Part shown: piece by piece, positions 7,736 to 15,254 of the stretch
Numbering within the stretch: position 1 is the stretch's first letter
Layout: each line of letters opens with the position of its first letter
Assembly (NCBI GenBank): GCA_030156825.1
Contig: JASGLU010000001.1
Location: 2,556-66,555 of the forward strand
Origin: Candidatus Atribacteria bacterium
GTDB lineage: Bacteria; Atribacterota; Atribacteria; Atribacterales; JASGLU01
DNA length: 64,000 nt
Direction: 5' to 3'
The notes under the pieces: model-generated
What the model was told of the DNA's origin: nothing
Databases searched by the model: none
What the model saw: only the letters and a program-made list of their open reading frames with translations
Made by a program: the position numbers and the translations under genes

Positions 7736-9082
7736 GTGAGAAAATCTAAATACACAGGAACTTGGGCAGTTTTTGACGAGGATTATAAAAGAGGTTTTGA
7801 CGATGTTTTTAGAAGATATGCTGAGAATGGCATTAAAAACGTAATGTATGGAGGTATCGCCTTAATTTTCGACATTCATAAGGAGTACTATATTGACACT
7901 TGTATCGATCCTTATACAGAAATAGAATATTATAAAGAGGTTGGGGATGTATTTGGCACTAAGGAAATATTGATAGAATCGGATTTTAATGAGGTTAATA
8001 GTATTGCTGATAAGTATGGATTGAGCTTACAATTGGTTATTACTCCTGGAGTGAGTGAGCCAATAGTAGCAAAGCATCCCTCAACGGCGGTTGTTGATAT
8101 CTATGGTAATAAAAGTCCTCATTGGATGTGCCCTTCTAATCCAGATGTTCAACAGTACTTTTTTGGAAGAATTGAAGATATTTTACGGCGCTACAAAATA
8201 GGAGAAGTAGAATTGGATGTCATATGTTTGGATTTTTATGATCCTCAGGTGGTGCCTGATTGGGTATTGCCAGAGCTTTATCCTCTTCGTCAATTGGCTA
8301 TTAGAAATTGCTTTTGTAAGCATTGTATAGAAAAAGCTAAGAAAGCGGGACTCAACTTGGCAAAGATTGAATCAGAAATAAAGGTTCTTAATGACGAGGC
8401 TCGTAGTCTAAAGTATGAGCAATTCAAAAAGTGGGATGACACAATAAGAGGGGTATTTGACATTATTAGGTTTGTTTTAAACCATCCAATGTTAATAGAT
8501 TGGTTAAGATTTAGAGCAAGTGTTGTAGAAGATTTTGTTTTCGACATTAAAAATGTTATCAAAAAAATAAACAGCGATATTCTTCTCTCGAGCGATCTAG
8601 TATCTCCAAGTTTTTCTTGGACGCTAGGGCAAATTTATAGTGAACAACCACGTTTGACTGATATTACTAAATTAATGCTTTATCATAAACGGATAGGATC
8701 TTTCGAAGTTAAGCCCTTGCGTCGTATAAAAAGTGCAATACCTCAAATAAAAGATGAGGAGTTAATGAGGCAATATTATAGATTAAAGGGGTTCAGTGGT
8801 CCTTTGACTTTTGACGAATTTGAAAGAGAAGGAATTGATGCGGAAAACATATATTACGAGGTTAAAAAAGCTAAGGTCGAGGTTGGTCCGGATTATCCGA
8901 TTGTTGCTGGTTTAGTAGGAGACCCTCCGGCTACAGCTAAGGATGTGAAAGAAGCAGTGAAGATGGCTTATAAAGGTGGGGCAGATGGATATATGTTACA
9001 TCAGTGGTATGGTAATACTCCTATAGAAAATATTGAAGCATTTGGGGAACAGTTAAGAGAGCTAGGAGAGATAAACGGTTGA
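7736..9082 (+). CDS. Hypothetical protein, possibly a glycoside-hydrolase-like TIM barrel
   Basis: Long ORF in operon context with GTG start after GAAGGAGAG. The weak motif WMCPSNPDVQQYF recalls GHL10/YddW-like proteins. No confident family assignment. Confidence 0.5.
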   Translation: MRKSKYTGTWAVFDEDYKRGFDDVFRRYAENGIKNVMYGGIALIFDIHKEYYIDTCIDPYTEIEYYKEVGDVFGTKEILIESDFNEVNSIADKYGLSLQLVITPGVSEPIVAKHPSTAVVDIYGNKSPHWMCPSNPDVQQYFFGRIEDILRRYKIGEVELDVICLDFYDPQVVPDWVLPELYPLRQLAIRNCFCKHCIEKAKKAGLNLAKIESEIKVLNDEARSLKYEQFKKWDDTIRGVFDIIRFVLNHPMLIDWLRFRASVVEDFVFDIKNVIKKINSDILLSSDLVSPSFSWTLGQIYSEQPRLTDITKLMLYHKRIGSFEVKPLRRIKSAIPQIKDEELMRQYYRLKGFSGPLTFDEFEREGIDAENIYYEVKKAKVEVGPDYPIVAGLVGDPPATAKDVKEAVKMAYKGGADGYMLHQWYGNTPIENIEAFGEQLRELGEING

Positions 9083-9136
9083 ATAATTTTTTGGTATTAT
9101 CCGGCTTGGACTTATTGGCTGAAGGAGTTATGCGAT

Positions 9137-10108
9137 ATGAAGGTTGACGTTTTGAGCTATGGGGAACCTTTGGTTCGCTTAACTCCCGAGCGGTTTAAGA
9201 CTTTTTTGAAAAGCAACTCCTGGGAAGTGGAAATAGGAGGAGCAGAAGCTAATGTTTTGGCTGGTTGTTCCATCCTGGGATTGGAAACTCAGCTATTGGG
9301 GGCTCTTCCGGATAACTTTTTGGGGCGAAGAGTTTTCCAGGAATTAAGGAGGTTTGGTATAGGGGTTGACCGTTTAGAGCTCGCAGAAGAAGGAAGAATG
9401 GGTCTTTATTTCCTGGAGTTTGCTCATCGAAGAGAAGGAGCCGAGGTGCTCTATGATAGGAAAGATTCTACCTTTTCTCATTTTGAGCTGAAAGAGGAGG
9501 ATTTTTCTTTGCTTTCTCAGAGTTCTCTTTTACATCTTACCGGCATCACCCCTCCTCTTGGCCCTATTTGTGATATGAATGTAAGAAATCTACTCAGGTT
9601 TAAACCTGCCACTTTGGCGGTTTCTTTTGATGTTAACTATCGTAGCAAACTTTGGAGTCCTAAGGAATGTCGGCAATTTATGGAAGAGATAATGGGGTCT
9701 GTAGACGTTCTTTTTATCAAAGAAGAAGATTTACAGATTATTTGGGGGTTGGAAAATGAGGATTACCGGGAGAAGTTAGCTTTTCTTCAGTCGCGCTATG
9801 GAGAAGATAAAATATATGTTTTAACTGCCGGAGAAAAAGGATGTTTTGTGTTGAGTGGAGATATCTCTTTACACCAGCCCAGCTTTGCTACGGAAGTGGT
9901 GGATAGAATAGGAGCAGGAGATGCTTTTGTAGCTGGATTTTTGTATGGATATCTGGATAAGAAAAGCCTGGAAGAAGCTGCCTTATGGGGTAACGCTATG
10001 GCTTCTTTAAAAATGAGTGTGGTAGGGGACATGCCTATTTTTGACCGTCATTTTGTGGACTCTCTGATTAATTATTCTCAACCCATCGGGAAAAAAGTGA
10101 GCCGATAA
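9137..10108 (+). CDS. PfkB-family sugar kinase (2-dehydro-3-deoxygluconokinase-like)
   Basis: C-terminal PfkB signature GAGDAFVAGFLYG and N-terminal GGAEANV motif. Confidence 0.8.
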   Translation: MKVDVLSYGEPLVRLTPERFKTFLKSNSWEVEIGGAEANVLAGCSILGLETQLLGALPDNFLGRRVFQELRRFGIGVDRLELAEEGRMGLYFLEFAHRREGAEVLYDRKDSTFSHFELKEEDFSLLSQSSLLHLTGITPPLGPICDMNVRNLLRFKPATLAVSFDVNYRSKLWSPKECRQFMEEIMGSVDVLFIKEEDLQIIWGLENEDYREKLAFLQSRYGEDKIYVLTAGEKGCFVLSGDISLHQPSFATEVVDRIGAGDAFVAGFLYGYLDKKSLEEAALWGNAMASLKMSVVGDMPIFDRHFVDSLINYSQPIGKKVSR

Positions 10109-10109
10109 A

Positions 10110-10889
10110 ATGGTGCCCAAGAGTTCAATTGGCACTTTAGAACAAGCAATAAAGATTCTTGAATTAGTTGTTTTTGGAGAGAAAGGCGGTTTGACCTTAA
10201 AAGAGGTAACTGAAAAAACCGGCCTTCACTCTTCGACGGTTTATCGATATCTTAATACTTTTTTACAGTTTGGTTATCTTAAAAAAGAACCAACCGGTCT
10301 TTATAAGCCGGGAATTAAATTGCTGGAGCTGGGTAACCATGTTTTAAATAGCTTCGATTTAAGAGAAATTGCCCATCCTTACTTGGTAGAGTTGGTAAAC
10401 CGAGTGAACCAAACAGCTCATTTAGCAATTAGAGAGGGGGATGAGGCTCTTTATATCGATAAAGTAGAAGGTCCTAAAACCTTACAAATGCGCTCCCGGG
10501 TGGGGATGAGAGTCCCTCTATATTGCACTGCTTTAGGCAAAATCCTTTTGGCTTATTCTGATAAAGAAGATGTGGATCGATATCTGAGGGAGGTGGAGTT
10601 GAAGCCTCGGGCTCAAAATACTATTACTTCTTCCCTGAAACTTAAAGAAGAACTATCAAGAGTTAAGCAACAAGGCTATGCTATTGACAATCAAGAAAAT
10701 GAACAGGGTATAGTTTGCGTTGGAGCCCCAATTTTTGATTTTACCGGGCAAGTAGTGGCTGCTCTCAGCGTTTCTGGGTTTTTTAAGGATTTTTCGGGGG
10801 GTAAAATCCAGGAAATTATATCTCATTTACGAAAAACAACTGCTTTAATTTCCAAAGGTTTAGGAGGGTCAGTTAGCCAAGGTGCCTAA
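10110..10889 (+). CDS. IclR-family transcriptional regulator
   Basis: N-terminal wHTH LTLKEVTEKTGLHSSTVYRYLNTF plus a C-terminal IclR effector domain. The ATG follows directly after the kinase stop. Confidence 0.9.
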   Translation: MVPKSSIGTLEQAIKILELVVFGEKGGLTLKEVTEKTGLHSSTVYRYLNTFLQFGYLKKEPTGLYKPGIKLLELGNHVLNSFDLREIAHPYLVELVNRVNQTAHLAIREGDEALYIDKVEGPKTLQMRSRVGMRVPLYCTALGKILLAYSDKEDVDRYLREVELKPRAQNTITSSLKLKEELSRVKQQGYAIDNQENEQGIVCVGAPIFDFTGQVVAALSVSGFFKDFSGGKIQEIISHLRKTTALISKGLGGSVSQGA

Positions 10890-11167
10890 AAATGAGTTTA
10901 TACTTTGGTTGTCATTCTTCCGCCGGTGCTTTTGTGGCCAACAGCGGAGGCTGAGTTTGTACTGATTGCTTGCCAGAGATGTTTGTTGTTGTTCTGATTC
11001 AACCGTGGGACTTTAGAGCTGTAAAAGGAAAATGTGATAAAGAAAGACCTGACCCCCAAATTTTTGGTTGAAAAATAAAAAATTTTGTAGGGAACCCATA
11101 AAGTTTTTAAAAAATATTCCGATATATTATAATAGTATTTAGTTGGTTTGATTTTCTATTTTAATCA

Positions 11168-11255
11168 TTTTCAAGGGCAAACTCTCCGAAAGGAGAGGAC
11201 GCAAAGCCACGAGCCTAAAGCAGGTTCTGCTAAGGCAGTCGGGTTGCCGGATCTC
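11168..11255 (+). promoter_or_regulatory. c-di-GMP-I (GEMM-I) riboswitch aptamer
   Basis: AGGGCAAAC, TCTCC-GAAA-GGAGA hairpin, GGACGCAAAGCC, CCTAAAG, AGCAG-GTT-CTGCT hairpin, GGCAGTCGGGTTGCC. This matches the remembered Vibrio cholerae Vc2 aptamer element by element. A TATAAT box lies at 11128-11133 upstream. Confidence 0.85.
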
Positions 11256-11338
11256 AACGGTTGAGATTCGTTAAGCAATAACTTTTGGCGCGTCACTCTC
11301 GATATTCCTTCGGAGAAGCCCTGAAGGAGGTACGAGAG

Positions 11339-12004
11339 ATGAAGCGCTGGTCTTTCTTCCTTACCATCTTCGGGCTTATCCTGATTATTCTGGTTTCCGG
11401 ATGCAGTAATTCTATAAATACTCCGGAAACCGGTTTTGACATTTCCTCTTCTCCCACCGCTGGTGGAACACTGGATAAGTTCATTGAGCTTTCTGATAAC
11501 AAAATCCTTCTTGATGTACCTTTTCTTCCTCAGGTTCCACCTGGTGATTGGGTAAATACCCGTAATTGTGGGCCTACCTGTGCGGTGATGATGCGGGCTT
11601 ACTATTTTGACATTCAACCCTTCCCTGACCATATCATTCAAGCCAATAACTGGCTTAATGCTCGTTTTGGCCTCCCGATTAACGGTTATAATGGTGACTG
11701 GACCAATATTTTTCAGATTCGTGCCTGGCTGGACAGCGAAGATGTGCCAACTAAAGTAGGGATGGGAAATCTGGAACGAGCTCAGGCTATGCTTTCTGAA
11801 GGTAAACCTTTTCTGGTGGCAGTTTATTCTAACATGAACCCCAGTGGCGGTGCTAAGCATGCTATGCTGGTAGTTGGTATCGACTCTAACAATATCTATG
11901 TCAATGACCCGGGTAAAGTTGCAGGAGCCAACAACTCTTATCCCATTTCTCAATTTCTTTCTGCCTGGGGCGCTCAGGGAAATTGGTATTTAGCTTTGGA
12001 CTAA
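11339..12004 (+). CDS. Peptidase C39-like (papain-fold cysteine peptidase) lipoprotein
   Basis: ATG 11339 lies 8 nt after GAAGGAGG. Signal peptide with lipobox LVSGC. Catalytic-type motifs NCGPTCAVMM (Cys), AKHAMLVVG (His) and YVNDP (Asp). Confidence 0.75.
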   Translation: MKRWSFFLTIFGLILIILVSGCSNSINTPETGFDISSSPTAGGTLDKFIELSDNKILLDVPFLPQVPPGDWVNTRNCGPTCAVMMRAYYFDIQPFPDHIIQANNWLNARFGLPINGYNGDWTNIFQIRAWLDSEDVPTKVGMGNLERAQAMLSEGKPFLVAVYSNMNPSGGAKHAMLVVGIDSNNIYVNDPGKVAGANNSYPISQFLSAWGAQGNWYLALD

Positions 12005-12204
12005 AATTAAGCCTCCTCCCGGAAAAGGCAAAGAAGATTGTTAGAGAAAAGGTTATGAGGTCTTCCGCAGATTTGTGAGAGGATGATACTCCTTATTGTT
12101 GAAGCTATTTCATCCTCATGCGTTTCTCTCCCTTTTATTTTTCCTCTGGAGTTTTCCTTCAATGGCGGGGGGAAATGTATAATTTCTTCTCCTATTGTTC
12201 TTTT

Positions 12205-12323
12205 CGTTGTTCCCGAAATTTAGCTGGGAATTCATCCTCTTCTACCATGTCTGTAATCTTTAATTAGGCATCTAGATACTTTTAAAACCATAAGCCCCTA
12301 ATAAAACCATTCAGGGGTGATAG
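12205..12323. repeat. Two members of the dispersed hairpin-repeat family
   Basis: CGTTGTTCCCGAAATTTAGCTGGGAATTC (12205-12237) and GCCCCTAATAAAACCATTCAGGGGTGATAG (12293-12323). Close relatives occur at 15799-15825 and 15676-15707. Confidence 0.7.
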
Positions 12324-12390
12324 AAGAAGAGATAATGGATTATTCTTCCTATAGTGACTGTCTTACAAAATAGGAGTAGTAGCTACCAAA

Positions 12391-12408
12391 ATAGGAATAT
12401 TTACCTAT
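12391..12408. promoter_or_regulatory. Palindromic operator-like site ATAGGAA-N4-TACCTAT upstream of the adhesin gene
   Basis: 7-4-7 inverted repeat ~70 nt before ATG 12480. Extra half-sites TTCCTAT (12346-12352) and ATAGGAG (12370-12376). The same architecture recurs at 18436-18453. Confidence 0.3.
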
Positions 12409-12479
12409 AGGATTCCTCCTTTTTGGGGATTATTCTTGTTACAGAAAAGGGACTTAATCCTTGAAAGGAGGAAATAATA

Positions 12480-15254
12480 ATGAACCACAAAAATCTTTTT
12501 TTACTGGTGGCCATTATAACTTGTTCTTTGGCTTTAATGGCTGGTTGTGTGAGTTCCCCTCAATTTGGTGCTCCAGAAACAACTGGTGCGACAATAACTG
12601 GCCGGGTGGCAACTCCAGAGAGCTGCTTTACTGGTGCCTGTGATAACCCATCTATAACTGATGGTAAACCTCTTCCTTTAGCTACAGCTCTCTTTTATGG
12701 AGGAGATAGCGGGCAGCTAAAAATCCAAGGTGAAACTGAGTGTGACGGATCTTTCGGAGTAAGTGCAGGCGGCGAAGGAAGCTACGTTCTCTATACAGTA
12801 AGAGAATACCCAGAGGGTTCTGGTAAATATGTGGTGGTTAAAAAAGGCATCAACGGCTCCTCTGGTGATGTGGGTGAAGCTAACGCATATACTACTTCTC
12901 AGGTAATTATCTGGGAACGTGCCAACGCTCTTTATGGAGAAGGTTTTACTCCTTTTGATGCTTCCTGGTATGCTCAATATAATTGGGGATGGAGCTTTGA
13001 CCCCGCTAAATTAGTTCTTCCAGTGAGCGATATTCCTAACCTCCAACCCACTGCTCAGCTTTTGGCTGCAGTAGAGAAGGCTCTATCTGAATGCCGTGAC
13101 CCGCAGGGAGATGGAGATGTAATATATTATGCTGAAGCAATTGCTAAAACCCAATTCGGTGCTCCTGGCGGTGGTGGAGGTACTACTGGAGGCGGAGGAA
13201 CTACAATCATTGTTGTCCCAACTCCCACTACAGGTCCCACTTCTGCACCAACAACACTTTACAAAATAACTGGCACAGTATATGTTAAAAGCGAAGAAGG
13301 CGCAGCAGTGCCCTATGATAATTCTAAAGGAGCTATTGGATTACGATTAGTTAAAAAGGCCGATAGTAGTAAAATTGAAGATACTTTTACTGAAAACGAC
13401 GGAACATTTGAATTTTCACCAGTTCCTGCTGGTGAGTATGTAATTAAAATTATTTCTGCCCCCGAAGGCTACGATGTAACTGCTCTTCCTAAGTCTAAAG
13501 CTGTGACTAAAGCGACATCGGATGCTAATATTGAAGTGGTTATTGTTAACGCCGATAGTGTAGGGAACAATTTTCTATTGGAAAAGGCCAGTCCAAAAAC
13601 TCATTTTGTTGATGGCTATGTATTTGAAGATCAGAATAACAACGGGGCTTATAATGATGGCGAGGGAATAGCAGGAATCGAGGTTAAGTTGAACGTTGTC
13701 AGCAACACAAAGGTTTCTATTGAGTGGAACAAGACAACCGATGAAAATGGGTATTACAAATTTGTAGGGCTTGAAGATGGGGTTGAGTATAGAGTTAGGC
13801 CAATAATTGCAAATACTTCGTATGGAGATGCGACCCCAAATAACTATCAATTTACTATTAATGGGTCGAATTTAAGAGATAAAAATTTCCAACTTAAAAG
13901 AGTTCCCGCAGAACAGACCTATTGTATAAGTGGTTATACTTATGAGAATGGGACTACTAGCCCAGTACAAAATGTCACCGTTAAGTTGCTTGATCACACT
14001 ACTGGCTCTTTAATAGCTAATACCACGTCCGATACTAATGGTTTATACCAGTTCTGTAACTTGTCGGATAAGAAAACATATCGAATCAGGGCAGAAATAC
14101 CATCAGGATATACTAATGTCGATCCAAATAGACGAGTTATACTAATCAATGGTGCAAACGTTATTGATGCCTCTTTTTGGTTTGTGAAAGCCTCTGCGCC
14201 AGTTTATACTCTCACCGGTATTGTGTATGCATCAGATGAAACTTGCGATACTCCATGTGGTGATTGCGATCAAGTAATATCCAAATCTCTTCAAACTGTG
14301 GCAGGTGTTAAAGTTGTTCTGAAAAAATACAATACCTCAACTAACAGCTGGGACAAAGTAAATGAAGTGACAACAGATGGGGATGGAGTTTACACTTTTG
14401 TTAACAACAGCGCCGGAAAATATCGAATAGTCGTTCCAGTGCCACAGAGTGATTATCCATATGTCACTCCCGAAAAATATGAAATTGATATTGTCACTCT
14501 GATAGGTAGGAATCTTGATTTTACTCTGAGCTGCTGTCAAGATAATCCCTGCTGTGAGGTGCCTAAAATCAGGAAACTCACTTTACAAGATGGATGTTCT
14601 GATCCAGTTCCATCGTCTTTTAATGGTATAAATATTGACTTTGAAGGACTTCCTGGAATAAGTGGAATGGGAAATTTGAATGGTGTTCTTTGCCCATCTT
14701 GTAGCCGTGACTATTGTTTGTGTTGGATTATGGGTGATTTGGAGATGAAACAAGGAAATAATCTGGAATATAAATTCGAAGCATTTTTCATTCCTGCAAG
14801 TGGACTTCAATTTGGACCATTCACTATTGGTTCAGAAATGAATAAAGATTTCTTATTGAAAAATATACCGATTAAATCTGGAGAAAGTCTTACAGTTATG
14901 ATTAAGGCAACAGCTTCTAATAGTTGCGGAAGCGATTTTACCACTGAACAAATTGTTCTTAATTGCCAAGGAGAAGAGCCGGGAATTGGATGTTTATTAG
15001 TAAAAGTTTCTAACCCACAAGGTGAAGGTTTTGGAGCTGGTTGGGTAAAATTGCATAATGACAGCCATACATTTGGACCATATAATACAGACAGAAATGG
15101 ATATTATACGTTTACAAATATACCTGTAGGAACTTATACACTTGAAGCGGGTGTAAAAGGACATCATAATTGGACAAGGCCCTCAAAAACTGTAGAAATT
15201 ACGGGAGGAGGAACCACTTGCCAAGAAGAATCGTTGCAATACACAAAAAAATAA
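12480..15254 (+). CDS. Large surface lipoprotein/adhesin with SdrD-B/Cna-B-like (carboxypeptidase-regulatory-like) repeats
   Basis: Lipobox LMAGC and RBS GGAGG. Gly/Thr/Pro hinge GAPGGGGGTTGGGGTTIIVVPTPTTGPTSAPTT. At least five ~100-aa repeats ending in DxNGxYxF motifs (e.g. DGYVFEDQNNNGAYNDGEGIAGIEVKL...TDENGYYKF). A Cys-rich module lies near the C-terminus. Confidence 0.8.
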   Translation: MNHKNLFLLVAIITCSLALMAGCVSSPQFGAPETTGATITGRVATPESCFTGACDNPSITDGKPLPLATALFYGGDSGQLKIQGETECDGSFGVSAGGEGSYVLYTVREYPEGSGKYVVVKKGINGSSGDVGEANAYTTSQVIIWERANALYGEGFTPFDASWYAQYNWGWSFDPAKLVLPVSDIPNLQPTAQLLAAVEKALSECRDPQGDGDVIYYAEAIAKTQFGAPGGGGGTTGGGGTTIIVVPTPTTGPTSAPTTLYKITGTVYVKSEEGAAVPYDNSKGAIGLRLVKKADSSKIEDTFTENDGTFEFSPVPAGEYVIKIISAPEGYDVTALPKSKAVTKATSDANIEVVIVNADSVGNNFLLEKASPKTHFVDGYVFEDQNNNGAYNDGEGIAGIEVKLNVVSNTKVSIEWNKTTDENGYYKFVGLEDGVEYRVRPIIANTSYGDATPNNYQFTINGSNLRDKNFQLKRVPAEQTYCISGYTYENGTTSPVQNVTVKLLDHTTGSLIANTTSDTNGLYQFCNLSDKKTYRIRAEIPSGYTNVDPNRRVILINGANVIDASFWFVKASAPVYTLTGIVYASDETCDTPCGDCDQVISKSLQTVAGVKVVLKKYNTSTNSWDKVNEVTTDGDGVYTFVNNSAGKYRIVVPVPQSDYPYVTPEKYEIDIVTLIGRNLDFTLSCCQDNPCCEVPKIRKLTLQDGCSDPVPSSFNGINIDFEGLPGISGMGNLNGVLCPSCSRDYCLCWIMGDLEMKQGNNLEYKFEAFFIPASGLQFGPFTIGSEMNKDFLLKNIPIKSGESLTVMIKATASNSCGSDFTTEQIVLNCQGEEPGIGCLLVKVSNPQGEGFGAGWVKLHNDSHTFGPYNTDRNGYYTFTNIPVGTYTLEAGVKGHHNWTRPSKTVEITGGGTTCQEESLQYTKK

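Follow-up and report, generated by a model that had tools for sequence, protein, structure and literature searches.

Aptamer and presumed target gene

The stretch of DNA analysed here, hereafter the window, comprises 64,000 nucleotides of contig JASGLU010000001.1 from Candidatus Atribacteria bacterium. It carries on its plus strand a cyclic di-GMP (c-di-GMP) riboswitch aptamer of the GEMM-I class (11166-11251) and, directly downstream on the same strand, the gene that the aptamer is predicted to control (11339-12004). The product is a 221-residue lipoprotein with the lipobox VSGC that was assigned to the Peptidase_C39_2 family (Pfam PF13529, E-value 3.9e-12), and residues Cys77, His174 and Asp190 are invariant in an alignment of seven orthologues of the peptidase. 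As to a more precise name, neither an NCBIfam family nor a solved-structure relative was found by sequence. The ATG at 11339 corresponds to the conserved start; an in-frame TTG further upstream (11285) was rejected as the start, because the reading frames of the orthologues open only a few bases before the conserved ATG, GTG or TTG. A promoter-like site on the plus strand (11106-11133), composed of TTTAAA, a 16-nucleotide spacer and TATAAT, agrees with the consensus at 10 of 12 positions and would place the transcription start near 11140. The orthologous leaders have a CCGAUAU/-10-like box about as far ahead of the aptamer.

A cmscan search of the 64-kb window against Rfam 15 returned a single family match, RF01051 (c-di-GMP-I/GEMM-I), at 11166-11251 on the plus strand with 88.0 bits (E-value 4.6e-16), about 2.5 times the gathering score of 35. 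The alignment is full length (model positions 1-87) with no non-canonical pairs flagged, and a competing model of the same clan scored below RF01051 and was dropped. At this score and E-value a chance match is effectively excluded. The first-pass annotation, made from the nucleotide sequence, had recognised an aptamer resembling Vc2, the GEMM-I riboswitch of Vibrio cholerae, block by block, and had named a covariance-model search with RF01051 as the check on it; the score lies above the gathering threshold, and every listed block occurs at its place. As read from the plus strand, these blocks are AGGGCAAAC (11174-11182), the stem CUCUCC/GGAGAG with its GAAA loop (11182-11197), GGACGCAAAGCC (11197-11208), CCUAAAG (11214-11220), AGCAG-GUU-CUGCU (11219-11231) and GGCAGUCGGGUUGCC (11234-11248).

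For comparison we collected 28 orthologous loci, in which the peptidase is encoded in six Atribacterota genomes (61-86% identity) and on 22 metagenome contigs (51-85%). A GEMM-I aptamer lies directly upstream of the orthologous peptidase gene in all 28, scoring 71-92 bits with RF01051 at 27 of them and best with the sister variant RF03167 at the remaining locus, L024. There, RF03167 (c-di-GMP-I-GGC) matches positions 315-399 with 65.5 bits (gathering score 59), and a compensated GGU...CAC replaces GGC...CGC at the junction pairs of L022, L024 and L027. No GEMM-I aptamer was found at more distant C39_2 homologues (37% identity or less). The exact window protein was also found on Logan assemblies with the same neighbouring genes.

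The 22 distinct leaders were sorted into four platform designs. Type A, which includes the window and its closest relatives, consists of the aptamer, a second hairpin (hairpin 2) and a hairpin over the start site. Type B follows the same plan with a hairpin 2 of other sequence and often a UUG start. Type C has a canonical P1a closing helix (GGGA/UCCC) and lacks hairpin 2. Type D and locus L006 combine a canonical P1a (GGAA/UUCC, GGAGA/UCUCC or GGGA/UCCC) with an immediate U-run and a C-rich hairpin complementary to the Shine-Dalgarno (SD) sequence. The 13 leaders of types A and B served as the alignment for covariation analysis.

The Rfam structure line places hairpin P1b (CUCUCC, the GAAA tetraloop at 11188-11191, GGAGAG) at 11182-11197 on the plus strand, where it is also present in the minimum-free-energy fold and pairs in all 13 leaders of the RNAalifold alignment. 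Beneath it lie the junction pairs G11177-C11202 and C11178-G11201, followed by hairpin P2 with the tetraloop receptor CCUAAAG ... CUAAGG (11205-11245). The P2 pairs are retained in the 13 leaders, and the receptor is aligned without mismatched pairs. With both the P1b tetraloop and the P2 receptor in place, the aptamer appears to have the two-hairpin docking architecture of GEMM-I. The equivalent of A47 is A11203, the first A after GACGC in the cmscan alignment; in Vc2 structures this adenine is intercalated between the ligand's two guanines.

Vc2 numbering was mapped onto the window through pairs G21-C46 and C22-G45 (PMC11705072). On this scale the selectivity nucleotide G20, which contacts one ligand guanine, is G11176 (model position 11). 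C92, reported to form a Watson-Crick pair with one ligand guanine (PMC11705072), is C11247 (model position 83), and the long-range pair C44-G83 described in the same paper corresponds to C11200/G11238 in the cmscan alignment. The window alignment thus shows every one of these ligand-site nucleotides. A G at position 20 fits c-di-GMP rather than 3'3'-cyclic GMP-AMP (cGAMP), position 20 being a selectivity factor between the two and not an absolute filter (PMC9262584), and c-di-GMP is the presumed ligand.

Pairing around the start codon and behind the aptamer

The SD sequence GAAGGAGG, read from the plus strand at 11323-11330, lies 8 nucleotides before the ATG. The minimum-free-energy fold of 11140-11360 consists of three modules, namely the aptamer, hairpin 2 and an interrupted start-site hairpin of 23 base pairs (11287-11348). 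In the latter, the lower pairs join 11287-11291 with 11344-11348 in codons 2-3. Next, 11293-11295 pair with 11340-11342, that is, the TG of the ATG and the next base with A11339 bulged, and 11296-11301 pair with the six bases before the ATG (11333-11338). Finally, 11305-11313 pair with 11321-11329, which includes SD positions 11323-11329. Taken alone, this hairpin has a predicted energy of -33.7 kcal/mol (z-score -5.3), and none of 200 shuffled sequences was as stable. Hence, in a modelled fold compatible with the ligand-bound aptamer, both the SD and the start codon are predicted to be paired. Three short plus-strand motifs had been noted in this region, TCCTTC (11306-11311), GAAGGA (11323-11328) and ACTCTC (11295-11300). 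The pairing that the first-pass annotation proposed between the first two is real and was understated there, as it forms only the tip of the 23-base-pair hairpin that also pairs the ATG.

The comparative data agree with this structure. When hairpin 2 and the start-site hairpin were considered together over the 13 leaders, 93.5% of the alignment cells can pair, as against 34-46% when the partners were slid by 1-3 columns; 12 pairs change on both sides, and the covariation score was reached by none of 500 shuffles. RNAalifold independently returned the aptamer, hairpin 2 and the start-site hairpin. In the lower stem around the start codon, 4 of 14 pairs show compensatory changes, for instance CUCUCG/CGAGAG to CUCUCA/UGAGAG and GCGC/GCGC to GUGC/GCAC, the second of which carries an Arg-to-His codon change. 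The anti-SD helix has one compensatory pair among nine, of which type B retains just the lower six. The most conserved platform feature across the family is therefore the pairing of the start codon and the enclosure of the SD; in the window the SD core is paired as well.

A pattern scan found no terminator-like site between the aptamer and the ATG (11251-11339), in line with the earlier reading that no U-tailed terminator follows the aptamer. No U tract follows any stem between these positions in the window, and the eight bases after hairpin 2 (UUAAGCAA) hold two U only. Together with the stable, covarying start-site hairpin and the RNAalifold result, this supports the proposal of a translational platform rather than attenuation.

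Hairpin 2 (plus strand, 11248-11270) consists of CGGAUCUCAA, the loop CGG and UUGAGAUUCG, forming 10 base pairs without a U tail. Its predicted energy is -11.3 kcal/mol (z-score -3.1), 7 of its 10 pairs change on both sides among the 13 leaders and 94.6% of the cells pair. As it was formed at every transcript length folded and in both predicted folds discussed below, the models indicate that it is not part of the switch. It starts at the C93 equivalent, directly after the equivalent of C92, and its first pairs are C-G and G-C.

This position is the one where a canonical P1a would be expected to close the aptamer. In the window, at most the pairs U11170-A11251, U11171.G11250 and C11172-G11249 can form, with 3' nucleotides that also build the base of hairpin 2, a helix that is paired in all 13 leaders and covaries. 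The lineage of the window shows no evident 5' strand from which a canonical P1a could be built. The RF01051 model itself contains no P1a pairs. Among the orthologues, types C and D do possess a canonical P1a with covariation (GGGA/UCCC, GGAA/UUCC, GGAGA/UCUCC). A P1a built from the 5' tail and the 3' flank was considered for types A and B: in some type A leaders (L002, L003) the 5' tail repeats the sequence of the hairpin 2 5' arm, which would allow it to pair with the 3' arm; the arrangement is absent in type B and was rejected.

For Vc2, a sufficiently long P1a (C93-G14, G94-C13 and further pairs) is needed for stable binding (PMC11705072). The first pairs of hairpin 2, C-G then G-C, resemble Vc2 C93-G14 and G94-C13, and we tentatively raise the possibility that the closing helix has been rewired, with hairpin 2 acting as a self-contained supply of P1a immediately 3' of C92. 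A closing helix supplied in this way cannot serve as the switch, so the regulatory role would have passed to a strand-invasion helix taking apart P1b and the ligand pocket. On this reading the RNA would be a GEMM-I riboswitch of permuted structure whose switching logic does not depend on P1.

Two predicted folds competing for one strand

The 5' half of the start-site hairpin (11290-11316, plus strand), which we call the switch strand, is complementary to the aptamer as well as to the SD/ATG strand. Its first part, GCGUC(A)CUCUC (11290-11300), complements GAGAGGACGC (11193-11202), which comprises the 3' arm of P1b and the junction bearing C44 and the two G-C pairs beneath the pocket. Its last part, UCGGAGA (11310-11316), complements UCUCCGA (11183-11189), that is, the 5' arm of P1b and its loop. 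The resulting alternative helix has 10 + 7 base pairs and joins 11183-11202 with 11290-11316. A second ACTCTC copy competing for the aptamer GGAGAG had been pointed out by the first-pass annotation; it turned out to be a part of this longer helix, which is present in all 22 distinct leaders.

In the window, RNAduplex gave -26.3 kcal/mol for the duplex, compared with -15.4 +/- 2.8 for dinucleotide shuffles of the platform. The nested two-part helix is the best duplex in 22 of 22 distinct leaders, across the four platform designs, and z-scores against shuffles range from -2.7 to -5.2 in types A-C, L006 and L028. Compensatory changes were observed among the 22 leaders at five aptamer positions: pair-type switches at aptamer segment positions 13 and 18 (A-U, G.U or G-C) and at position 20 (G-C or A-U), and a double swap at positions 3-4 in L006. 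At the junction, GACGC occurs with GCGUC, GGCGC with GCGCC (L006, L028) and GGCAC with UGCC (L024, L027), the GGCAC change of the latter two being compensated inside the aptamer as well (GGC to GGU). At the P1b arm, GGAGAG or GGGGAG occurs with CUCUC, CUCCC or CCCC. The alternative helix belongs to the unconstrained minimum-free-energy fold of L004 and, with a 25-nucleotide 5' flank included, of L021.

A series of transcripts starting near 11141 and ending at successive 3' positions was folded to follow the order in which the partners become available. Up to 11290 the aptamer with hairpin 2 is the best structure. At 11295, GCGUC takes GACGC and this state is 5 kcal/mol better than the intact aptamer, and for 3' ends at 11316-11335 the full alternative helix leads by 7-12 kcal/mol. 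Transcripts reaching 11348 or beyond again favour the aptamer with the start-site hairpin (-78.3 vs -74.2 kcal/mol). In constrained ensembles the two folds lie 2.7 kcal/mol apart in the window, and from -5.3 to +13 kcal/mol apart in the other leaders. Freeing the stretch from -15 to +12 around the start codon of the window takes 26.1 kcal/mol when the aptamer is folded, compared with 12.5 in the alternative fold, and the difference has the same sign in each of the 19 leaders tested (12.6-28.4 vs 3.3-15.3 kcal/mol). The models therefore predict an alternative fold that excludes the aptamer and eases the opening of the ribosome site.

The first-pass annotation had left the choice between ON and OFF open; computational and comparative evidence on the anatomy now indicates OFF. 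We consider that the leader probably acts as a translational OFF switch, in which a GEMM-I aptamer ahead of the lipoprotein cysteine-peptidase gene works through a strand that two folds have in common. The segment 11290-11316 would pair with only one of its two partners at a time. Binding of c-di-GMP would lock P1b and the pocket junction, the shared strand would pair with 11321-11348, and the 23-base-pair hairpin would bury the SD and the ATG, leaving the 30S subunit unable to load. Without ligand, GCGUC (11290-11294) would first capture the exposed GACGC (11198-11202) of the pocket; pairing would then spread into P1b to give the 10 + 7 base pairs with 11183-11202, the aptamer would be dismantled, and the SD/ATG strand would lose its strong partner so that translation could proceed. 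Since ligand binding needs nucleotides that are consumed by the alternative helix, the ligand should favour the aptamer fold with its closed ribosome site. The ligand dependence of the fold choice and its effect on translation are what these models would predict.

Several observations weigh against this interpretation. All energies come from nearest-neighbour models that ignore tertiary structure and the ligand. Even without ligand, the full-length model gives the closed fold a slight advantage (2.7-4 kcal/mol in the window, up to 13 for L018), so the ON state may depend on kinetic trapping. Moreover, the SD is not fully free in the alternative fold of the window, being held in weak A-U and G.U pairs with the U-rich tail at 11164-11173; its mean unpaired probability is 0.22 in the alternative and 0.20 in the aptamer fold, and opening is confined to the start codon (0.62 vs 0.34). 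The duplex is not clearly better than shuffles in the type D leaders L022, L024 and L027 (z-scores -1.4 to -1.7). The alternative helix is invariant within the 13 closest leaders (types A and B), which is uninformative either way; its covariation rests on comparison across platform types, and the duplex optimiser, applied to each sequence, leans towards finding pairs. Lastly, a gene for a c-di-GMP cyclase or phosphodiesterase was not identified in the window, where only a motif scan was run (no GGDEF and one weak EAL-like match).

In the ligand-free fold of type A leaders, the U-rich 5' tail (11141-11175) is predicted to pair weakly, through A-U and G.U pairs, with the purines around the SD. 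Such pairing, which would lengthen the alternative helix on its outer side, is not conserved in type B and may be an artefact of modelling a U-rich against a purine-rich sequence. An explicit outward extension (11169-11178 with 11318-11327) was predicted for the window, found no consistent support in type B and was treated as weak.

Among the alternatives, it is rather unlikely that the main output is Rho-dependent termination or messenger RNA decay, either following the translational block or replacing it, with intrinsic termination at a P1a-plus-U-run in the distant orthologues. The canonical P1a of L006, L022, L024, L027 and L028 is indeed followed directly by a U-run, and the Vc2 riboswitch is reported in a preprint (bioRxiv 10.1101/617340) to act on RNA stability too. 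The window, however, lacks a U tract after any stem of its platform, the helix around the start codon is the platform element with the strongest conservation and covariation, and Rho dependence is not readable from sequence. As an observation on the family itself, the U-run follows the covarying P1a directly, for instance as UCCCUUUUUUGUU, at L006 3924-3945, L022 1437-1455, L024 400-420, L027 1383-1400 and L028 1402-1420. A ligand-stabilised P1a could double there as an intrinsic terminator beside the anti-SD hairpin and, if terminating, would also give OFF.

An improbable explanation is that the start-site hairpin restrains translation constitutively or under separate control, for instance as a thermometer or as a structure opened by a protein or a small RNA, with the complementarity to the aptamer arising as a by-product of shared SD-like and anti-SD-like sequences. 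The 3' arm of P1b, GGAGAG, resembles an SD, so any anti-SD partly matches it; the hairpin is also very stable (-33.7 kcal/mol) and is the equilibrium fold at full length even without ligand. Yet the complementarity reaches past the SD-like part into GACGC, where it covaries (GACGC/GCGUC, GGCGC/GCGCC, GGCAC/UGCC), and it is kept in four otherwise different platform designs. In many leaders, furthermore, the two folds are near-equal in energy, and in some the alternative is best.

A translational ON switch, in which c-di-GMP binding opens the ribosome site, seems more improbable still. The modelled alternative fold still has the SD weakly paired with the U-rich 5' tail, so that the ligand-free state is not obviously wide open, and the direction had been left open at first. 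Against ON, the shared strand has the SD/ATG strand as its only partner when the aptamer is folded, the ribosome site is costlier to open with the aptamer folded in each of the 19 leaders tested, nothing was found that could keep the start-site hairpin open in that state, and the U-run directly after P1a in the distant orthologues also points to OFF. Sensing of another cyclic dinucleotide (3'3'-cGAMP or a variant ligand) is very improbable: the GEMM-I class includes cGAMP sensors first annotated as c-di-GMP switches (PMC9262584), and L024 fits the variant model RF03167 best, but the window has G at G20, C at C92 and A at A47 and scores 88 bits with RF01051 against a lower competing clan model, the G20 argument being not decisive for a mere selectivity factor (PMC9262584).

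Gene neighbourhood, known systems and implications

On the same strand upstream, a sugar-utilisation cluster occupies positions 7736-10889; it encodes a GHL10-like glycosyl-hydrolase-like protein, a PfkB-family sugar kinase and an IclR-family regulator, and nothing evident connects it with the riboswitch unit. The gene downstream of that for the peptidase encodes a 924-residue lipoprotein (12480-15254) with SdrD_B, SpaA and CarboxypepD_reg immunoglobulin (Ig)-like repeats. Its N-terminal 226 residues have no Pfam match, and they are conserved right after the peptidase gene in L001, L004, L007, L009, L012 and L015-L018, and weakly in L022, L027 and L028. This recurrence points to a conserved gene pair.

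The intergenic region between the two genes (12005-12479) measures 475 nucleotides and holds terminator-like hairpins, including those at 12151-12191 (plus strand) and 12029-12011 (minus strand); five were found, compared with a shuffle mean of 0.6. No riboswitch was found before the 924-residue gene, and no Rfam family matched in the intergenic region. A candidate SAM-III riboswitch before this gene was rejected as chance-level (16.7 bits vs a gathering score of 45, E-value 0.68). On two Atribacterota-type contigs, arrays of clustered regularly interspaced short palindromic repeats (CRISPR; RF01315 repeats, period ~66-68 nucleotides) lie 0.4-3.4 kb upstream of the riboswitch-peptidase locus, both on the minus strand (L006 491-2395, L023 47-544); none was reported in the window.

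Among described GEMM-I riboswitches, Vc2 in the tfoY leader of V. cholerae is a translational OFF switch that masks a distant ribosome-binding site, according to PMC11705072 (citing Inuzuka 2018) and PMC9262584. The window has the same aptamer family and a predicted OFF mode that likewise does not rely on an intrinsic terminator. The P1/P1a strand is the key switching element in Vc2, Cd1 and pilM (PMC9262584). In contrast, the predicted switching helix of the window invades P1b and the pocket junction (11183-11202) and not P1a, for which no 5' strand is evident in its lineage; the organism and the regulated gene differ as well. Switching through P1/P1a is thus not what the models predict here, and the leader would be a variant of the Vc2-like mode rather than a copy of it.

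Cd1, in the leader of the flagellar operon of Clostridioides difficile, is an OFF switch acting via a Rho-independent terminator; its aptamer and OFF structure coexist and compete with one alternative fold, which is transiently stable and relaxes to OFF (PMC9262584). The length series of the window, which belongs to the same aptamer family, shows a similar pattern of a transient alternative. Unlike Cd1, the window has no intrinsic terminator and instead is predicted to bury the SD and ATG, so that transcription attenuation of the Cd1 kind is not apparent from its sequence. The GEMM-Ib riboswitches of Geobacter, such as pilM, are transcriptional ON switches selective for cGAMP (PMC9262584). They have the same fold and belong to the same Rfam clan, whereas the window has G at the selectivity position and an anatomy that points to OFF.

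With respect to the regulated gene, a class I c-di-GMP switch of C. difficile controls the secreted protease PPEP-1/ZmpI, whose adhesin substrates are regulated oppositely (PMC11477304). Similarly, the window has a class I switch before a surface peptidase that is encoded next to the 924-residue Ig-repeat lipoprotein. However, PPEP-1 is a metalloprotease and the window protein a papain-like C39_2 cysteine peptidase, and the search for a riboswitch ahead of the neighbouring large gene was negative. That the 924-residue lipoprotein might be a substrate of the peptidase is speculation.

Translational GEMM-I switches are already established by Vc2, and knowledge of the riboswitch class is unchanged by the present case. 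The differences from described cases appear modest, namely the predicted switching via P1b and the pocket, and a 3' hairpin at the position of P1a. A full-text search found no literature combining Atribacter, c-di-GMP and riboswitch. The locus is thus a candidate case of switching through P1b and the pocket instead of P1a, and the 22 natural leaders, with four platform designs and one shared-strand principle, form a compact comparative set on the evolution of expression platforms. The leaders of these peptidase genes across Atribacterota can be labelled as c-di-GMP-I riboswitches for which a translational OFF output is predicted. On that basis, low c-di-GMP would presumably turn on a surface cysteine peptidase beside a conserved Ig-repeat surface protein in a largely uncultured phylum, a logic of c-di-GMP-repressed peptidase that would parallel PPEP-1 in C. 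difficile (PMC11477304).

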